Origin: a virus
Length of the DNA: 64,000 nt
Strand: one strand, 5' to 3'
UHGV virus genome: UHGV-2113617
The position numbers and the translations under genes were made by a program. Shown here one piece after another: positions 20,730-25,259 of the stretch. The notes under the pieces are model-generated. The model saw only the letters and a list, made by a program, of their open reading frames with translations. It searched no databases and was not told where the DNA came from. Position 1 is the stretch's first letter. The number at the start of each line of letters is the position of its first letter.

Positions 20730-21019
20730 TCAGTCTCCAATTTAATGTTCATAATTCTAGCGTATGATTGTGCCATCTCCGCGCCTCGTTCTATACATTC
20801 AAAATCGGAAGAGCACGGGTCATTTTTATAGGTCGTTCGCATAAAACTATAGAACTGTTCAGATGATTCTACGCTTTTATTTTCAAAAAGCATATAAACA
20901 TGTCTAATACCAGATTCCATAAATTTATCAAAATGAGGATCGACATTCGCTTCAATTGGTGGAGATAAAGCAAACGCTAATCCTAGCATGGCAAATAATG
21001 CCGTTGCTTTTAAGGCCAT
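20726..21019 (-). CDS. rI: lysis-inhibition regulator rI
   Basis: 97 aa with N-terminal signal-anchor MALKATALFAMLGLAFALS; matches T4 rI as recalled. Confidence 0.8.
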   Translation of the reverse strand: MALKATALFAMLGLAFALSPPIEANVDPHFDKFMESGIRHVYMLFENKSVESSEQFYSFMRTTYKNDPCSSDFECIERGAEMAQSYARIMNIKLETE

Positions 21020-21031
21020 AAAGGCCTCCTA

Positions 21032-21244
21032 TCATTTTTGTCCTGTATTTACTTTATGCCGATGCACGGCCTTAACTTTATCAAGGCATTTTTCAAAATT
21101 TCGCAATCTAGTATAGTCTGCCGGAGATTGGTTGAGTGATACTTCTCGACGCAAAGCTGAAATGATATTTCCAACTTCCCTACGAATTTCATCTAATTGA
21201 AGAACAGTAAGATTGCGAAGTTGCTTTTCAGTTAATTGTAGCAT
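21032..21244 (-). CDS. hypothetical protein
   Basis: 70-aa ORF. Confidence 0.5.
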
Positions 21245-21286
21245 ATATACCCCTTTAGTTAGATAAACCTATTTATAACTTTTGCA

Positions 21287-21868
21287 CTAACCGAGCTTTT
21301 TAGTTAATTCATTCCAATGTTTTCTACACAAAGAAACATAAATTTCATCACCAATACAGATTTGATTACCTTCTTTAACTGGCGTTCCATCTTCCATTAA
21401 TCGAGCTGTCATAATCGCTTTTTTACCGCAATGACAAACTGCCTTTAGTTCAATAAGTTTATCTGCAATCGCCAAAAGTTCTTTAGAACCTTCAAATAAT
21501 TTTCCAGCGAAATCAGTCCTTAGACCATAAGCCATAACAGGAACATTATATGCATCGACAATTCGGCTTAATTGATGTACCTGTTCAGTTTTTAAAAACT
21601 GAGCTTCATCTACAAATACGCAATGAATATCTTTTTGTGCTTCAGCCCATTTATAGAACTCAAAAATATCCATATCATCCGTAATAATATTCGCTTCCTG
21701 CTTAATTCCAATGCGAGAAACGACTTCACAGACAGAATCGCGAGTATCAATAGCAGGCTTAAGAACTAATACACTCATTCCACGTTCTTTATAATTATGC
21801 GCAGCAGTCAAAAGAGAAGCAGATTTTCCAGCATTCATTGCTGCATAAGTAAAAATTAAACTCGCCAT
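21287..21868 (-). CDS. tk: thymidine kinase
   Basis: 193 aa, P-loop AAMNAGKS, C-terminal CxxC pairs. Confidence 0.9.
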   Translation of the reverse strand: MASLIFTYAAMNAGKSASLLTAAHNYKERGMSVLVLKPAIDTRDSVCEVVSRIGIKQEANIITDDMDIFEFYKWAEAQKDIHCVFVDEAQFLKTEQVHQLSRIVDAYNVPVMAYGLRTDFAGKLFEGSKELLAIADKLIELKAVCHCGKKAIMTARLMEDGTPVKEGNQICIGDEIYVSLCRKHWNELTKKLG

Positions 21869-21877
21869 ATCACCTTC

Positions 21878-22063
21878 TTAAAGCGTATTCACATAAGCTA
21901 TTAATTCGTTTTCTTTCTTATCAAACCGATCAGCAAATTCTTCCTGGTGTTCGGGAGATAGCGGGCCGTATTCATCATAAAAGGTGTTTGCTTCTGTATG
22001 CTCATCTAGAAGTTCATGGATAAGCTCAAACAATTTATCTTTTTGTTCTTTACTCAGACTCAT
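21878..22063 (-). CDS. hypothetical small protein
   Basis: 61-aa ORF. Confidence 0.5.
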   Translation of the reverse strand: MSLSKEQKDKLFELIHELLDEHTEANTFYDEYGPLSPEHQEEFADRFDKKENELIAYVNTL

Positions 22064-22233
22064 ATATTAATTTCCAGAAGTTTTAAAATAATTCGCTTTT
22101 GCTTAAATATTTCCATAGTTAAATGATCAGTATCTTTTTGACCAATTCCAATGGCAAAACCTTTATTAACAGCGAGTTCAATTAAATTATCAAGTTCACG
22201 TAACACTTCATATTGTAACTCAAAACTATTCAT
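22060..22233 (-). CDS. hypothetical small protein (absent from ORF track)
   Basis: 57-aa ORF MNSFELQYEVLRELDNL..., start/stop coupled to neighbours. Confidence 0.35.
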   Translation of the reverse strand: MNSFELQYEVLRELDNLIELAVNKGFAIGIGQKDTDHLTMEIFKQKRIILKLLEINI

Positions 22234-22442
22234 TTTGGTTTACCTTCTTTAACGAAATCAGGATAAGGATAAAATCCTGAATAAAATCCTTCGCCTTTAT
22301 GATTGATGCATCCTTTATTAGAGCAATAGCACCAATAATCGAAATCACAAGCCATTTCATCATTGCATAAAGCAAAAACAACTGGCCATTTACACTTTTC
22401 ACAATGTGCATTTTTAAGAATGCTAGTTTGGCTCATAACCAT
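22230..22442 (-). CDS. cysteine-rich small protein (putative zinc binding)
   Basis: about 70 aa with HCEKCKW...CNDEMACDFDYWCYCSNKGC. Confidence 0.45.
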   Translation of the reverse strand: MVMSQTSILKNAHCEKCKWPVVFALCNDEMACDFDYWCYCSNKGCINHKGEGFYSGFYPYPDFVKEGKPK

Positions 22443-22645
22443 GTAACCTTTAAGCAATATTCTTCTACATGCTGTTTACGACCTTTCTTATCAATAAAGG
22501 TATATTCAACGAATGTTCCAATATAGTCTTTATCTACATCATGTGGACTATTAATTGGGCATTTAGTACGGCAAATGCGTTCCCATTGACGAATAATTTC
22601 CACTTTGTTTTTAGGATCAAACGGATGCGGGTAATGTGCTTTCAT
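22433..22645 (-). CDS. hypothetical protein
   Basis: 70-aa ORF. Confidence 0.45.
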   Translation of the reverse strand: MKAHYPHPFDPKNKVEIIRQWERICRTKCPINSPHDVDKDYIGTFVEYTFIDKKGRKQHVEEYCLKVTWL

Positions 22646-23096
22646 AATCCACCACTATTAAATCAATATCAGGAGTAAACATGTCGATTAATTTAGAAAC
22701 CTTATCCCAATCACCGCCAGCAATACCACAACCTATGCGTGGAATGTAAATTACTGGTTTAAACAAAAGGGTTTCTGCCTGTAGATTTAATTCTATCATG
22801 CAGTTTACTAAAGCACCATAATCAAGATTAGGACCCGGTTCGTATTGTGTATACAGGTTATAGCATATACCAAATCCCGTAGGATTATGTTTAAAAACAA
22901 TAGACATATCGCCTAGTTTATCACGAGAACCGTACTCAGTAGTGGTTTTATCTATTTCTAAAATTTTAGGATAGGCCCTTGCTAATTGACCTGCTACACC
23001 TGAACCCATAGTATGAAAACAATTGCATCCGTGCGCAATAATATTACCTTGAAGAAATAGGGCGACAATATCGCCCTTGATATATTTTACAATCAT
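22617..23096 (-). CDS. macro-domain protein (ADP-ribose binding/hydrolase fold)
   Basis: 159 aa; GDIV...HGCNC...GSGVAGQLARA and C-terminal PRIGCGIAGG resemble macro-domain signature. Confidence 0.6.
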   Translation of the reverse strand: MIVKYIKGDIVALFLQGNIIAHGCNCFHTMGSGVAGQLARAYPKILEIDKTTTEYGSRDKLGDMSIVFKHNPTGFGICYNLYTQYEPGPNLDYGALVNCMIELNLQAETLLFKPVIYIPRIGCGIAGGDWDKVSKLIDMFTPDIDLIVVDYESTLPASV

Positions 23097-23434
23097 CTAG
23101 TACTCAATCCTCGATTATAAGAATCTACCAAACGGTCAACCATTGAATGACAAGCGGCTTTATCTTTCTCCTCCGCAACTGAACATTCTAAGGTATTCCA
23201 CTTTTTAGCATATCGTTTTAATAAAGTATCATTTTTGTATCTGCTTGATTTATCTCTTTCTCCGTCTTTATATGCATATATTAATTTCTGCGCAAATTCA
23301 GCTTGACATGCTTTATTTTTCCCACAATAATCTGCGGCAGTACGGTTTACATACTCTCTAATTTCAGTGTATGATGTATTTGCTAACGCAGAAAATGAAA
23401 TTAATCCTACACATAAAACCAAAATTTTAGTCAT
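23093..23434 (-). CDS. secreted cysteine-containing protein
   Basis: 113 aa, signal peptide MTKILVLCVGLISFSALA, four Cys in mature part. Confidence 0.6.
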   Translation of the reverse strand: MTKILVLCVGLISFSALANTSYTEIREYVNRTAADYCGKNKACQAEFAQKLIYAYKDGERDKSSRYKNDTLLKRYAKKWNTLECSVAEEKDKAACHSMVDRLVDSYNRGLSTR

Positions 23435-23972
23435 TTACTATTTCCAACAGTTTATTATTTTTAAGGTAGTTAGCCTTTTCTAGGACTTCAGAAGCATATT
23501 TAGAACCTGCTTTAACATTCCATCCCGAATTATAAGAGGATATTGCCTTTCTTATATCGCCCTTATGTATATTTAACCAATAAGAAAGTTCAATGTACGC
23601 CCAGGAAGCTGAATTGGACCGTTTATTCAACATTCTTTTTATTTCAGCATCGGTCATATTATAACCAAGTTCCTTAACTCTTGCTCGCATGGTCGGCAAA
23701 TAATTTTGGAACATTCCATAGGCATGATGCTTTGGTTTAGATTTTAAATTAACTCCGGCAGAGCTTTCTTGCCATAAAATAGCAGCCATTATATGACCTA
23801 ATCCACTCTTGTGGATATTTTTGTGTGTTTTATATTTTCCATCCTTAGAAAATTGTTCCCCGAATTGATATGCGTAACGCATGTTATCGAGTTGGACATT
23901 ACTGAAAGTATGCTCGGAGCTATGTGCCATCATTGAAATGGCCAATAGACCAGCGAGTAGTGCTTTTCTCAT
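23427..23972 (-). CDS. secreted lytic-transglycosylase-like protein
   Basis: 181 aa, signal peptide; motifs ES, GMFQ, YNSG match family-1 lytic transglycosylase motifs. Confidence 0.6.
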   Translation of the reverse strand: MRKALLAGLLAISMMAHSSEHTFSNVQLDNMRYAYQFGEQFSKDGKYKTHKNIHKSGLGHIMAAILWQESSAGVNLKSKPKHHAYGMFQNYLPTMRARVKELGYNMTDAEIKRMLNKRSNSASWAYIELSYWLNIHKGDIRKAISSYNSGWNVKAGSKYASEVLEKANYLKNNKLLEIVND

Positions 23973-23979
23973 GCTTACC

Positions 23980-24441
23980 TCATTGAGTTTTAATTACTGC
24001 TTTAGAAGCCTTTCCTGGTAAACGACGACTGTTGATAATTGCCATCCTGCACTGAAGTGACGGGTCTTTGAACTTCTCGTTAGGTTTACAAACTGTAAAT
24101 CCAAGCCAAAGATTTCCATCTGTGATTTCTAAACGCCCAGGACGATATTCAACCCCATCAATAAAATCCTCATTAATGTCAGGACGCGGAGGCATACTCA
24201 GGAATTCATTAACTTCTAAAACATGGTCTTTTATTTTGTGGAATAATTCAAAAACATATGTCTCATCAATCTCCCGTTGAATTGCACGATCAAGAAGATG
24301 CTGAGAATATTTTAGATGAAACGATGAGACCCCTGCTGCTTTTGATGCCTCACGAATCTCATTGTTAATTTGACGAAACTCCGACTCAAAGTGACGACGG
24401 AGCTTATTTCGACGGATAAAAACTTCTGTGTTGATAGTCAT
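23980..24441 (-). CDS. regB: RegB-like sequence-specific endoribonuclease
   Basis: 153 aa in the regB position; identity from memory. Confidence 0.55.
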   Translation of the reverse strand: MTINTEVFIRRNKLRRHFESEFRQINNEIREASKAAGVSSFHLKYSQHLLDRAIQREIDETYVFELFHKIKDHVLEVNEFLSMPPRPDINEDFIDGVEYRPGRLEITDGNLWLGFTVCKPNEKFKDPSLQCRMAIINSRRLPGKASKAVIKTQ

Positions 24442-24468
24442 GTTATTCTCCTCTTAACTGATAGAAAA

Positions 24469-24498
24469 ATTATACCACAGTCAAGAGGAAAAGTAAAC
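24469..24498 (-). promoter_or_regulatory. T4-type early promoter
   Basis: GTTTAC, 18 bp, TATAAT. Confidence 0.6.
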
Positions 24499-24500
24499 AA

Positions 24501-24779
24501 TTATTCTTTAAATCTAATCAATTTATTCATAGACTTTGTAACTTCTGCACGAACCTCATGTAGGTTTTTGAGTTGCTCAAGACGCTGCTCATAGTAAGCA
24601 ATTTCATCTTCTTCGAGACAGTCCTGTGAATCTTCTTTAAGATAGCGTGCATAGTCCTGGAAAGCGTTACGGACTACTTCCTGGAAGTCATCAAGACTTT
24701 GAATTTTCTTAGGAGCAACAGATACACGACGAGGGGCAGTATAATACTCATAACCAAACCCTGCGCTTAATTGGGCCAT
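24501..24779 (-). CDS. hypothetical protein
   Basis: 92 aa from MAQLSAGF; TAATG coupling to upstream gene. Confidence 0.5.
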
Positions 24780-25045
24780 TAATATTTTTCCTCTGGTTGG
24801 AACACAGCACGACAAGCCCACATACTGGCTTCTTTGAGTTTCGTTTTAGCAATAGTTAACTGATCGAGACTTTCAGCATAATTCTTCGCGAATTCGCAGT
24901 CTTCACAATTATCTAGTGCTTCCCAGAATTCATCATATAAAGCATCAAAGATAAGCCCTAAACGAACTTCAGCATCTTTGATAGCATTCACTTTACCGAT
25001 TTTCTCTTCAGTATGTGGCTTATAACCCTTAATATCTTCAATCAT
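24779..25045 (-). CDS. hypothetical small helical protein (vs.4/Acb2 position, unverified)
   Basis: 88-aa ORF; assignment by synteny only. Confidence 0.45.
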
Positions 25046-25259
25046 ATTTTACTTCCTCACCAGTACCTAAATCATATTCAACTAAACGAATAGGTTCATG
25101 AATGCCATATCCCTGAACAGAAATTTCTGTCGTAGGATAAATTCCATCAATATCACCCATATTCCATGCTTCATTAAATTGCTGTTCGCCTGAATTACTA
25201 AACCACTCGGCGAAAGCATTTAGCACATCTTCAGAACCTTCAATAATTATCTTTGCCAT
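25038..25259 (-). CDS. hypothetical acidic protein
   Basis: 73-aa ORF. Confidence 0.5.
   Translation of the reverse strand: MAKIIIEGSEDVLNAFAEWFSNSGEQQFNEAWNMGDIDGIYPTTEISVQGYGIHEPIRLVEYDLGTGEEVKYD

Follow-up and report, generated by a model that had tools for sequence, protein, structure and literature searches.

A divergent allele of the T4 tk.4 (adfM) macrodomain gene and its probable action against DarTG2

Introduction

DarTG2 is a toxin–antitoxin system, widespread as a phage defence, in which ADP-ribosylation of the phage DNA stops the phage, and knowing the phage genes that cancel this defence helps host-range prediction, including for therapeutic T4-like phages. The locus described here raises the question of whether a small gene of a T4-like phage belongs among them. 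A sequence-only reading had picked out a 159-aa ORF by the strings HGCNC...GSGVAGQLARA and PRIGCGIAGG, both of which are indeed present, on the minus strand at 22617..23096 of the window (the whole stretch of 64,000 nucleotides that was analysed), and had proposed a macrodomain that could reverse host ADP-ribosylation, with the deletion phenotype on DarTG hosts as one test. That hypothesis is supported, yet the function has already been published for the ortholog in T4, whose knockout is sensitive to DarTG2 (bioRxiv 10.1101/2025.11.20.689424). The main value of the present analysis lies in confirmation of the published factor and in refinements that concern the share of a divergent allele, the Gln-for-Lys chemistry and the naming of AdfM, and annotation errors. 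A role in Thoeris or in the degradation of other signals had also been raised and was set aside, with nothing in the analysis in support.

The tk–regB segment

The locus lies in a Tequatrovirus (T4-like) tk–regB segment with its genes on the minus strand. The macrodomain gene ends in a stop codon at 22617-22619 and sits between vs (96% identical to T4) and a tk.3 homolog (93%), which is the position of T4 tk.4. Its translation start context (23093..23112, minus strand), as read from the sequence, has GAGGA at 23108-23112, 11 nt upstream of the ATG at 23094-23096, and this start codon shares bases with the TGA stop of vs, the gene upstream, in the string ATGA. This overlap may reflect translational coupling of vs and the macrodomain gene within one transcription unit.

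The earlier reading placed the macrodomain gene next to, and downstream of, a gene for a cysteine-rich small protein, and treated 22230-23096 as two genes. The small protein exists, but the interval holds three genes, and the arrangement was misread in both respects. The immediate downstream neighbour is the tk.3 homolog (22433..22645, minus strand), unmentioned in that reading, which encodes 70 aa matching Pfam DUF7202 at 127.9 bits and starts within the 3' end of the macrodomain ORF, with an overlap of 29 nt. The gene for the cysteine-rich protein (22233..22436, minus strand, with its stop codon at 22230-22232) follows, its ATG overlapping the tk.3 stop, again as ATGA. With the minus strand coding for all three, transcription reaches the macrodomain gene before the gene for the cysteine-rich protein, and the former is thus upstream of the latter.

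A scan for sigma-70-type promoters across 21000-25200 returned 14 sites, compared with 15.7 expected in shuffled sequence, and thus no excess; it carries no information on transcription. A terminator-like hairpin at 23059-23077, within the 5' end of the macrodomain ORF, was rejected as a candidate element, for it folds no better than shuffles in context (z = -1.26), and it is treated as a by-product of the conserved coding sequence.

Fold and class of the 159-aa protein

The 159-aa protein is a real macrodomain. Pfam Macro (PF01661) covers residues 22-136 with model positions 2-117 of 118 and scores 33.1 bits where the gathering score is 22 (E 5.8e-8), which is far beyond chance. An AlphaFold2 model, built from an input alignment that left out the T4 sequence row, has a mean pLDDT of 93.5 and a pTM of 0.89, and its three-layer alpha/beta/alpha fold superimposes on solved macrodomains. 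Foldseek returned 159 PDB chains at E <= 0.001, and the best 50 of these are all macrodomains or designs on that scaffold; the best matches are TARG1, Poa1p, BT1257, DarG and SCO6735, all with a probability of 1.00. The family profile, searched against PDB sequences, finds BT1257 (1.6e-18), TARG1 (1e-16), SCO6735 (3e-15) and DarG (7e-12), and its hhalign alignment to DarG macrodomains has a probability of 99.1% (E 8e-19). The fold suspected from two short motifs is therefore borne out by Pfam, by the structural model and its matches, and by the match of the family profile to DarG macrodomains.

Members of the ALC1/TARG1-like class make up all 15 profile matches and the first 18 Foldseek matches, with YmdB and coronavirus Mac1 ranking lower. 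The protein is thus of the ALC1/TARG1-like class rather than of the MacroD, PARG or viral Mac1 classes.

The T4 ortholog and its phenotype

The protein is 58% identical to T4 Tk.4 over 155 aa (E 8e-70), and position and sequence together identify it as the ortholog of Tk.4 (AdfM, "anti-DarT factor Macrodomain"), in a divergent allele. The two share the slot between vs and tk.3, the length class (159 versus 155 aa), membership in phrog_335, residues H22, N25 and Y82-T83-Q84, the glycine-rich loop, and a nearly identical N-terminal stretch of 38 aa.

A further anti-DarTG2 factor in T4 was already predicted, because T4 lacking both adfA and adfN stays resistant to DarTG2; T4 and T2 lacking adfN alone also remain resistant. 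A transposon screen on a DarTG2 host then gave tk.4 as its single significant match in T4, and a clean knockout of tk.4 made T4 sensitive to DarTG2, whereupon the gene was named adfM (bioRxiv 10.1101/2025.11.20.689424). The same preprint describes enzymatic removal of ADP-ribose by T4 Tk.4 only as something that "seems likely" (bioRxiv 10.1101/2025.11.20.689424).

This phenotype bears on a metabolic reading, in which the protein would be an ADP-ribose-1''-phosphate phosphatase or an O-acetyl-ADP-ribose deacetylase that feeds ADP-ribose or NAD+ metabolism rather than DNA repair. Yeast Poa1p is among the best matches by both sequence and structure, and its His23 aligns with the invariant His22; genes for NAD+ salvage flank the homologs of Pseudomonas phage IQPL and Vibrio phage Quinn; and annotations of T4 tk.4 have long listed an "A1pp phosphatase motif". 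The "phosphatase" label was, however, assigned by homology alone, NAD+ salvage genes are absent from the neighbourhood covered (window positions of about 20.3-25.0 kb) and from the tk–regB region of T4, and the sole known phenotype of the T4 ortholog is sensitivity to DarTG2 (bioRxiv 10.1101/2025.11.20.689424). A metabolic function is accordingly considered very unlikely. Public records often carry the "phosphatase" label for the macrodomain gene, and some annotate a truncated product of about 130 aa, which is only 82% of the protein.

T-even phages encode ADP-ribosyltransferases, and this general point could suggest that the macrodomain serves to remove the ADP-ribose that Alt, ModA or ModB of the phage itself attach to host proteins or RNA. 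These three enzymes are arginine-specific, while the activities of the TARG1/DarG class in the literature covered are on Glu/Asp-linked and on thymine- or uracil-linked ADP-ribose, with cleavage of the arginine linkage not reported. The known phenotype, moreover, depends on a host defence system (bioRxiv 10.1101/2025.11.20.689424), and reversal of the phage's own marks is exceedingly improbable.

The cysteine-rich neighbour

The cysteine-rich protein, of 68 aa with seven cysteines, matches PF23895 ("Phage zinc binding domain") with 101.2 bits, compared with a gathering score of 27, and falls in phrog_2306. In an alignment of seven sequences, C12, C15, C24, C30, C38, C43 and H46 are invariant and are putative zinc ligands, in keeping with the zinc binding suggested by the earlier reading. 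An AlphaFold2 model made from six homologs has a mean pLDDT of 41.5 and is unusable.

Proximity invites the suggestion that the macrodomain and the putative zinc-binding protein form a two-part system. Their genes belong to a single cluster that runs in one direction and in which start codons overlap stop codons, the two are immediate neighbours in Gaprivervirus VR20 and in two further T4-like contigs, and the order tk–Zn–macro looks to be kept in distant Klebsiella straboviruses, as judged by coordinates in two related records. The gene for the cysteine-rich protein is nevertheless absent from the T4 tk locus, yet T4 resists DarTG2 by way of tk.4 alone, the single screen match; the cysteine-rich protein is therefore not needed for the anti-DarTG2 function in T4. 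In addition, it occurs with either macrodomain allele (L005, L008, L009 versus L006, L007; T2), and among the 778 records listed it is confined to T4-like phages, while the macrodomain family extends to wider phages. The two-part reading is highly improbable and is largely refuted, and a functional link of the macrodomain to either the tk.3 homolog or the cysteine-rich protein finds no support here.

Active site and proposed mechanism

Conservation was scored in an alignment of 74 sequences with identities as low as about 40%. Of the motif H22-G23-C24-N25 (codons 23022..23033, minus strand), H22, G23 and N25 are invariant, and N25 is the counterpart of the Asn conserved in the active site of macrodomain hydrolases, aligning with N22 of the Thermus aquaticus DarG. 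The glycine-rich phosphate-binding loop from P119 to G128, PRIGCGIAGG (codons 22713..22742, minus strand), has P119, G122 and G124 invariant and G127 and G128 at least 90% conserved, and it aligns with PRIGCGLAGG of BT1257, PRIGCGL of TARG1 and PPLGAGNGG of DarG.

The remaining motif, N80-x-Y82-T83-Q84, is conserved at the position of a catalytic lysine that the family does not have. N80, Y82 and Gln84 (codon 22845..22847, minus strand) are invariant, and T83 is at least 90% conserved. In profile alignments, Gln84 stands opposite the catalytic Lys80 of DarG and Lys84 of TARG1: hhalign sets T83-Q84 opposite T79-K80 of T. aquaticus DarG, and HMMER sets the motif opposite "ITKK" of TARG1 and "IGQH" of BT1257. 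Profile alignments were used for this region given that a six-sequence MAFFT alignment misplaced the Lys/Gln region of the distant sequences. By these alignments the catalytic lysine is replaced by Gln across the Tk.4 family, as in SCO6735 of Streptomyces coelicolor; the equivalence of Gln84 and N25 to the SCO6735 residues runs through the BT1257, TARG1 and DarG alignments and the published structural alignment (PMC9411070) rather than through a direct one.

SCO6735 has Gln85 at the equivalent position, and it is inactive as Q85A and loses activity as N27S (PMC9411070). It hydrolyses ADP-ribosylated thymidine in DNA efficiently and rescues cells from DarT (PMC9411070). In PhiKZ gp104, another phage macrodomain, mutation of the corresponding Asn (N23A) abolishes activity (PMC13309987).

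The explanation preferred here, and considered likely, is that the protein is a stand-alone macrodomain of the "orphan antitoxin" type, an ortholog of AdfM that removes DarT2 ADP-ribose from phage DNA by SCO6735-like chemistry. The protein would be made from one transcription unit together with vs and tk.3. The host toxin DarT2 would ADP-ribosylate thymidines in single-stranded phage DNA and block replication, and the macrodomain would bind the ADP-ribose and cut the ribose-thymine bond, such that ADP-ribose is released and normal DNA is restored. The chemistry is probably like that of SCO6735 and not like that of DarG or TARG1, in that the invariant Gln84, itself fixed by Asn25, would hold the distal ribose in place together with a water molecule, with neither a catalytic lysine nor a covalent intermediate. 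By analogy, the 58%-identical allele of the window may act as T4 Tk.4 does, by the same mechanism.

Several observations weigh against hydrolysis of the DNA modification as the main explanation. The window allele is only 58% identical to the T4 allele that was tested and differs from it in the phosphate-binding loop, and it is without the lysine that is required in DarG and TARG1 and kept in the AdfM of PhiKZ. Homologs among NAD+ salvage genes in other phage families hint at other or additional roles. SCO6735 also blocks DarT non-catalytically, such that hydrolysis is not the sole possible route to protection (PMC9411070).

This last point leads to the alternative that protection is mainly non-catalytic, whereby the protein binds or blocks DarT2 or shields modified DNA, similar to the "interaction-inhibition" by DarG and SCO6735. 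SCO6735 Q85A, though catalytically dead, remains an inhibitor of DarT in vitro, and a stronger one than DarG K80A or TARG1 K84A (PMC9411070). The absence of the catalytic Lys from the 159-aa protein fits, as does the high variability of the gene body among close phages, which would be expected if the protein surface co-evolved with a host protein. A pure binder would, however, have no need of the Gln-type catalytic residues, all of which are invariant in the 74 sequences, and the protein is without the C-terminal DarT-binding domain of DarG. A mainly non-catalytic action seems improbable.

Alleles and distribution

Although the flanking genes are 93-99% identical to those of T4, the macrodomain proteins are only 58% identical overall. 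The phosphate-binding loop is GCGIAGGD in the window allele and GAGIGKGN in T4 Tk.4, residues 45 to 80 also differ, and the 29-nt overlap with tk.3 comes with a C-terminal extension of 4 aa in the window allele. Gaprivervirus VR20 has a copy that is 92% identical to the window allele, and in PP01 and teqdroes tk.4 is again about 58% identical to its T4 counterpart. In the collection, the two alleles are about equally common among T4-like phages, with window-type alleles (at least 90% identity) in 313 records and the T4 allele (at least 90%) in 224, and the macrodomain family as a whole is found in 2859 records, including those of Felixounavirus, Demerecviridae and Pseudomonas phages.

Two allele classes at 58% identity inside near-identical flanks, one of them common to another genus at 92% identity, could suggest that the window allele acts on something else, or on more, than the T4 allele does; candidates are other variants of DarT2, RNA with uracil-linked ADP-ribose, Glu/Asp-linked ADP-ribose on protein, or another host ADP-ribosyltransferase toxin. 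Both SCO6735 and TARG1 accept further substrates, namely proteins and U-ADPr RNA. The active-site residues are, however, the same in both alleles, nothing in the data points to a second target, and descriptions so far treat the CmdT-type ADP-ribosylation of adenine in RNA as irreversible. A change of target is quite unlikely. A larger conjecture, itself unlikely to hold, is that in E. coli T-even phages both classes of Tk.4 allele move as cassettes, even between genera, and are not equivalent, being tuned to different host ADP-ribosyltransferases (DarT2 variants and toxins that target RNA or protein), that the Gln mechanism makes for a broader "eraser" than DarG, and that the variable cysteine-rich protein adds a separate counter-defence activity.

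Comparison with known systems

The closest solved structures by sequence profile are BT1257 of Bacteroides thetaiotaomicron (PDB 2FG1, 2AFC), with 70 bits, and human TARG1 (4J5R), with 64 bits. BT1257 shares the Gln and the loop PRIGCGxAGGxW, but is a protein of no known function. TARG1 differs in its Lys84/Asp125 dyad, in place of which the window protein has Gln84 and, as judged by eye from the loop alignment, Ala126.

DarG is the best-scoring defence-system model for the protein, both in PADLOC (4.5e-7) and in NCBIfam (1.4e-6), with only the macro half matched. The DarG macrodomain of DarTG2 (PDB 5M31, 5M3E, 5M3I) has a homologous fold (TM-score about 0.73-0.78), and the presumed substrate of both would be ADP-ribosyl-thymidine in ssDNA. 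Identification as a true DarG was rejected, as three defining features fail. The two-domain build of about 340 aa, a macrodomain with a C-terminal DarT-binding domain, is absent, for NCBIfam NF048014 is matched over positions 2-142 of 338 with 27.8 bits, compared with a cutoff of 250, and the PADLOC match spans only 3-144 of 329. The catalytic Lys80 of the DarG PTK motif is absent, with YTQ (Gln84) in its place, and no darT (DUF4433) gene is adjacent, the neighbours being vs and the tk.3 homolog. A real DarT-DarG pair, from Haliscomenobacter, served for comparison.

SCO6735 (PDB 5E3B) is a Gln-type hydrolase of thymidine-ADP-ribose in DNA (PMC9411070). In common with it, the window protein has an ALC1/TARG1-like macro fold, a Gln where other members have the catalytic Lys, and the conserved His and Asn of loop 1; both Q84 and N25, the signature of SCO6735-like hydrolases, are present and invariant. 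Each is also a stand-alone single domain that is not encoded beside darT. The two differ in that identity is only 23% in the structural alignment and in that SCO6735 is the product of a bacterial DNA-damage-regulated gene, not of a phage counter-defence gene.

PhiKZ gp104 has also been named "AdfM" and, like the window protein, is a stand-alone phage macrodomain, there countering DarTG2, with N23 equivalent to N25 (Cell Rep 2026, PMC13309987). It is of a different lineage and keeps the "PTK" lysine of DarG where the window protein has YTQ. An HMM of DarG macrodomains scores gp104 at 106.6 bits and the window protein at 36.6, gp104 reaches only 34.7 bits on an HMM of the Tk.4 family, and pairwise BLAST of the two proteins gives an E of 0.007. 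Gp104 thus groups with the DarG macrodomains and retains their catalytic Lys, while the window protein does neither. Gp104 also has direct biochemical proof (PMC13309987), in which it differs from the Tk.4 family. The name "AdfM" therefore currently covers two independently recruited macrodomain lineages, one of the T4 type and one of the PhiKZ type, with probably different chemistry.

Macrodomain Gene and its T4 Counterpart

The 159-aa ORF at 22617-23096 (minus strand) contains the motifs from which a sequence-only reading had proposed a macrodomain, and the assignment is correct, given a Pfam Macro match of 33.1 bits against a threshold of 22. An alignment of the window protein with 73 homologs (74 sequences) yielded an AlphaFold2 model with a mean pLDDT of 93.5. 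The solved structures that match it best, at TM-scores around 0.7-0.8, are TARG1, yeast Poa1p, BT1257, DarG and SCO6735. T4 has tk.4 in the slot between vs and tk.3; in the reference genome this gene encodes 155 aa and is annotated as "phosphatase; contains A1pp phosphatase motif". The alignment of the window protein with Tk.4 runs over the full length, with 58% identity (E 8e-70). A phosphatase function, as the database label has it, is an attribution by homology whose only source is Poa1p, and the product name is unsupported by experiment.

A HIDEN-SEQ transposon screen of T4 on a host that expresses the DarTG2 toxin-antitoxin system, in which the DarT2 toxin ADP-ribosylates phage DNA, yielded only one significant hit, tk.4, whose clean knockout makes T4 sensitive to DarTG2 (bioRxiv 10.1101/2025.11.20.689424). 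The 2025 preprint named the gene adfM; removal of ADP-ribose from DNA is the authors' proposal. Earlier work, in which a factor of this kind was predicted, had found that T4 and T2 without adfN, and also T4 without both adfA and adfN, still withstand DarTG2. The feature is real and its first interpretation, reversal of host marks to be tested against DarTG, was right in substance, but screen and knockout are already published for the T4 ortholog.

Organization of the Locus

Nucleotide identity assigns the region to a T4-like phage (Tequatrovirus): in a search of phage records, the 3.3-kb stretch around the finding (22230-23096) matches Escherichia phage vB_EcoM_SP1 at 99% identity and several hundred other T4-like records at 95-99%. 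Every gene of the region lies on the minus strand, in the transcription order regB, vs.1 (SLT domain), vs, the 159-aa macrodomain ORF, a 70-aa ORF (22433-22645; DUF7202, a homolog of T4 Tk.3), a 68-aa Cys-rich ORF (22233-22436; Pfam PF23895), a 57-aa ORF, a 61-aa ORF and thymidine kinase. GAGGA precedes the macrodomain ORF, whose start codon shares bases with the vs stop codon (ATGA), and the start of the Cys-rich ORF likewise lies on the stop of the 70-aa ORF. Given these overlaps, the genes resemble one tightly packed transcription unit. A consensus scan of 21000-25200 for sigma-70-type promoters gave 14 sites, no excess over shuffled sequence (15.7 expected).

At 23059-23077 (minus strand), within codons 7-13 of the macrodomain ORF and in a stretch 100% identical to T4, a GC-rich hairpin with a perfect 8-bp stem precedes a T-rich run. 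It is probably incidental, since in its 81-nt context it folds no better than shuffled sequence (z = -1.26). About 1.7 kb upstream of the macrodomain ORF, an 88-aa ORF (24779-25045, minus strand), the counterpart of vs.4 in T4, is annotated in phage P8 as "anti-CBASS protein 2 (acb2)", which would place two anti-defence genes inside a 2.5-kb span of the early-gene block.

Two Alleles of the Macrodomain Gene

The neighboring proteins are much closer to their T4 counterparts than the macrodomain protein is (Tk 99%, Tk.3 93%, Vs 96% and Vs.1 99%). DNA identity to T4 is 93-100% on either side but falls to 53-68% at about 22580-23000, with the first ~100 nt of the macrodomain gene 83-100% identical. 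Judged from these identities, the gene body is a cassette-like allelic replacement relative to T4. The left recombination boundary lies within the conserved stretch that encodes the N-terminus. The two allele classes are both common: at 90% identity or more, the window protein has copies in 313 records of the phage collection and T4 Tk.4 in 224. The copy in Gaprivervirus VR20 is 91.6% identical in amino acids to the window protein, compared with only 72% for Tk and 42% for Vs, a pattern that points to cassette exchange between genera.

Cysteine-Rich Protein and Small Neighbors

The Cys-rich protein that had been reported next to the macrodomain is real, with seven cysteines and a 101-bit match to the PF23895 "Phage zinc binding domain", and few homologs were retrieved for it; the two genes are not adjacent here, however, as the DUF7202 gene lies between them, and the direction of transcription puts the macrodomain gene first rather than downstream. 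They do abut directly in VR20 and two other contigs, so the closeness of the two genes is conserved within the variable early-gene region of T4-like phages. The abutment could suggest that the two proteins are required partners, but the evidence is against it. T4, with the order tk, tk.1, tk.2, tk.3, tk.4, has no copy of the zinc protein in its tk locus yet resists DarTG2 through tk.4 alone. The zinc protein accompanies the T4-type macrodomain allele in T2 and several metagenomic T4-like contigs and the window-type allele in other contigs. It is found in 778 phage records, those listed all being T4-like phages, whereas the macrodomain is found in 2859, including Felixounavirus, Demerecviridae and Pseudomonas phages.

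Between tk and tk.3 lies a shuffled set of small genes (window 21878-22436; T4, L002 4347-4717; T2, L019 12486-13235). T4 has tk.1 and tk.2; T2 has these plus the 57-aa gene and the zinc protein; and the window lacks tk.1 and combines a tk.2 variant (54% identical) with the 57-aa gene and the zinc protein. Further combinations occur in other contigs.

Family Members in Other Phages

In unrelated phage families, Tk.4-family macrodomains are found among NAD+ salvage genes. In Pseudomonas phage IQPL (L017 1-1980), the macrodomain is one small gene downstream of nicotinamide phosphoribosyltransferase, and in Vibrio phage Quinn (L018 1632-4638) it lies between PRPP synthetase and nicotinate/nicotinamide phosphoribosyltransferase. 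This adjacency hints that the family may be tied to NAD+/ADP-ribose recycling. The homolog in Escherichia phage Alf5 (Felixounavirus; L016 1495-2280) is 261 aa long, with about 100 aa added to the macrodomain at its C-terminus, and several matches in a viral structure database are likewise 240-260 aa.

Some public records (vB_EcoM_P8, L001 2918-3310; P0002 in Shigella phages SHFML-11 and SHFML-26) give a truncated product of about 130 aa, which spans just 82% of the protein and so omits part of the domain. SHFML-11 DNA encodes the full 159 aa (99.4% identity), and the shorter form looks like a start-codon annotation error.

Active Site and Comparison with Known Macrodomains

Among defence-system models, DarG, the DarTG2 antitoxin, scores best with the window protein and T4 Tk.4 alike, although the match covers only the macrodomain half (27.8 bits against a family cutoff of 250). 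A profile of the phage family matches DarG macrodomains with 99.1% probability (E 8e-19) and places T83-Q84 opposite T79-K80 of Thermus aquaticus DarG, numbered by the PDB chain sequence. In HMMER alignments, Gln84 faces Lys84 of TARG1 and a Gln of BT1257. Across the 74 aligned sequences, Gln84 does not vary, and neither do H22, N25, N80, Y82, P119, G122, G124 and W130.

SCO6735 of Streptomyces coelicolor also has glutamine where the catalytic lysine would be, strips DNA of thymidine-linked ADP-ribose with higher efficiency than DarG or TARG1, and can rescue cells from DarT (PMC9411070). All activity is lost in its Q85A mutant and nearly all in N27S, and a water-mediated mechanism was proposed in which Gln holds the distal ribose in position (PMC9411070). 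Because the window protein has the same Lys-to-Gln replacement, we propose that it acts as SCO6735 does: after binding to ADP-ribosyl-thymidine in single-stranded phage DNA, it would hydrolyze the ribose-base bond without a covalent lysine intermediate. Protection may instead come from binding of DarT2 without hydrolysis, since SCO6735 Q85A still inhibits DarT (PMC9411070), but the strict conservation of the catalytic residues argues that catalysis matters. As to the substrate of the proposed hydrolysis, the window allele may have a different or wider range, given its divergence and the fact that relatives also act on U-ADPr RNA and proteins. A macrodomain of this class is unlikely to undo the arginine-directed ADP-ribosylation carried out by the phage itself.

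The name AdfM was given independently to gp104 of PhiKZ, which removes DarT2-made ADP-ribose from DNA in vitro (2026 Cell Reports; PMC13309987). Translated from the construct sequence in that paper, gp104 retains the DarG-type "PTK" lysine and scores 106.6 bits with a DarG-macrodomain HMM, against 36.6 for the window protein, but only 34.7 with the T4-family HMM; BLAST barely detects the similarity between the two proteins. The T4-type and PhiKZ-type AdfM are thus separate recruitments of related macrodomains.
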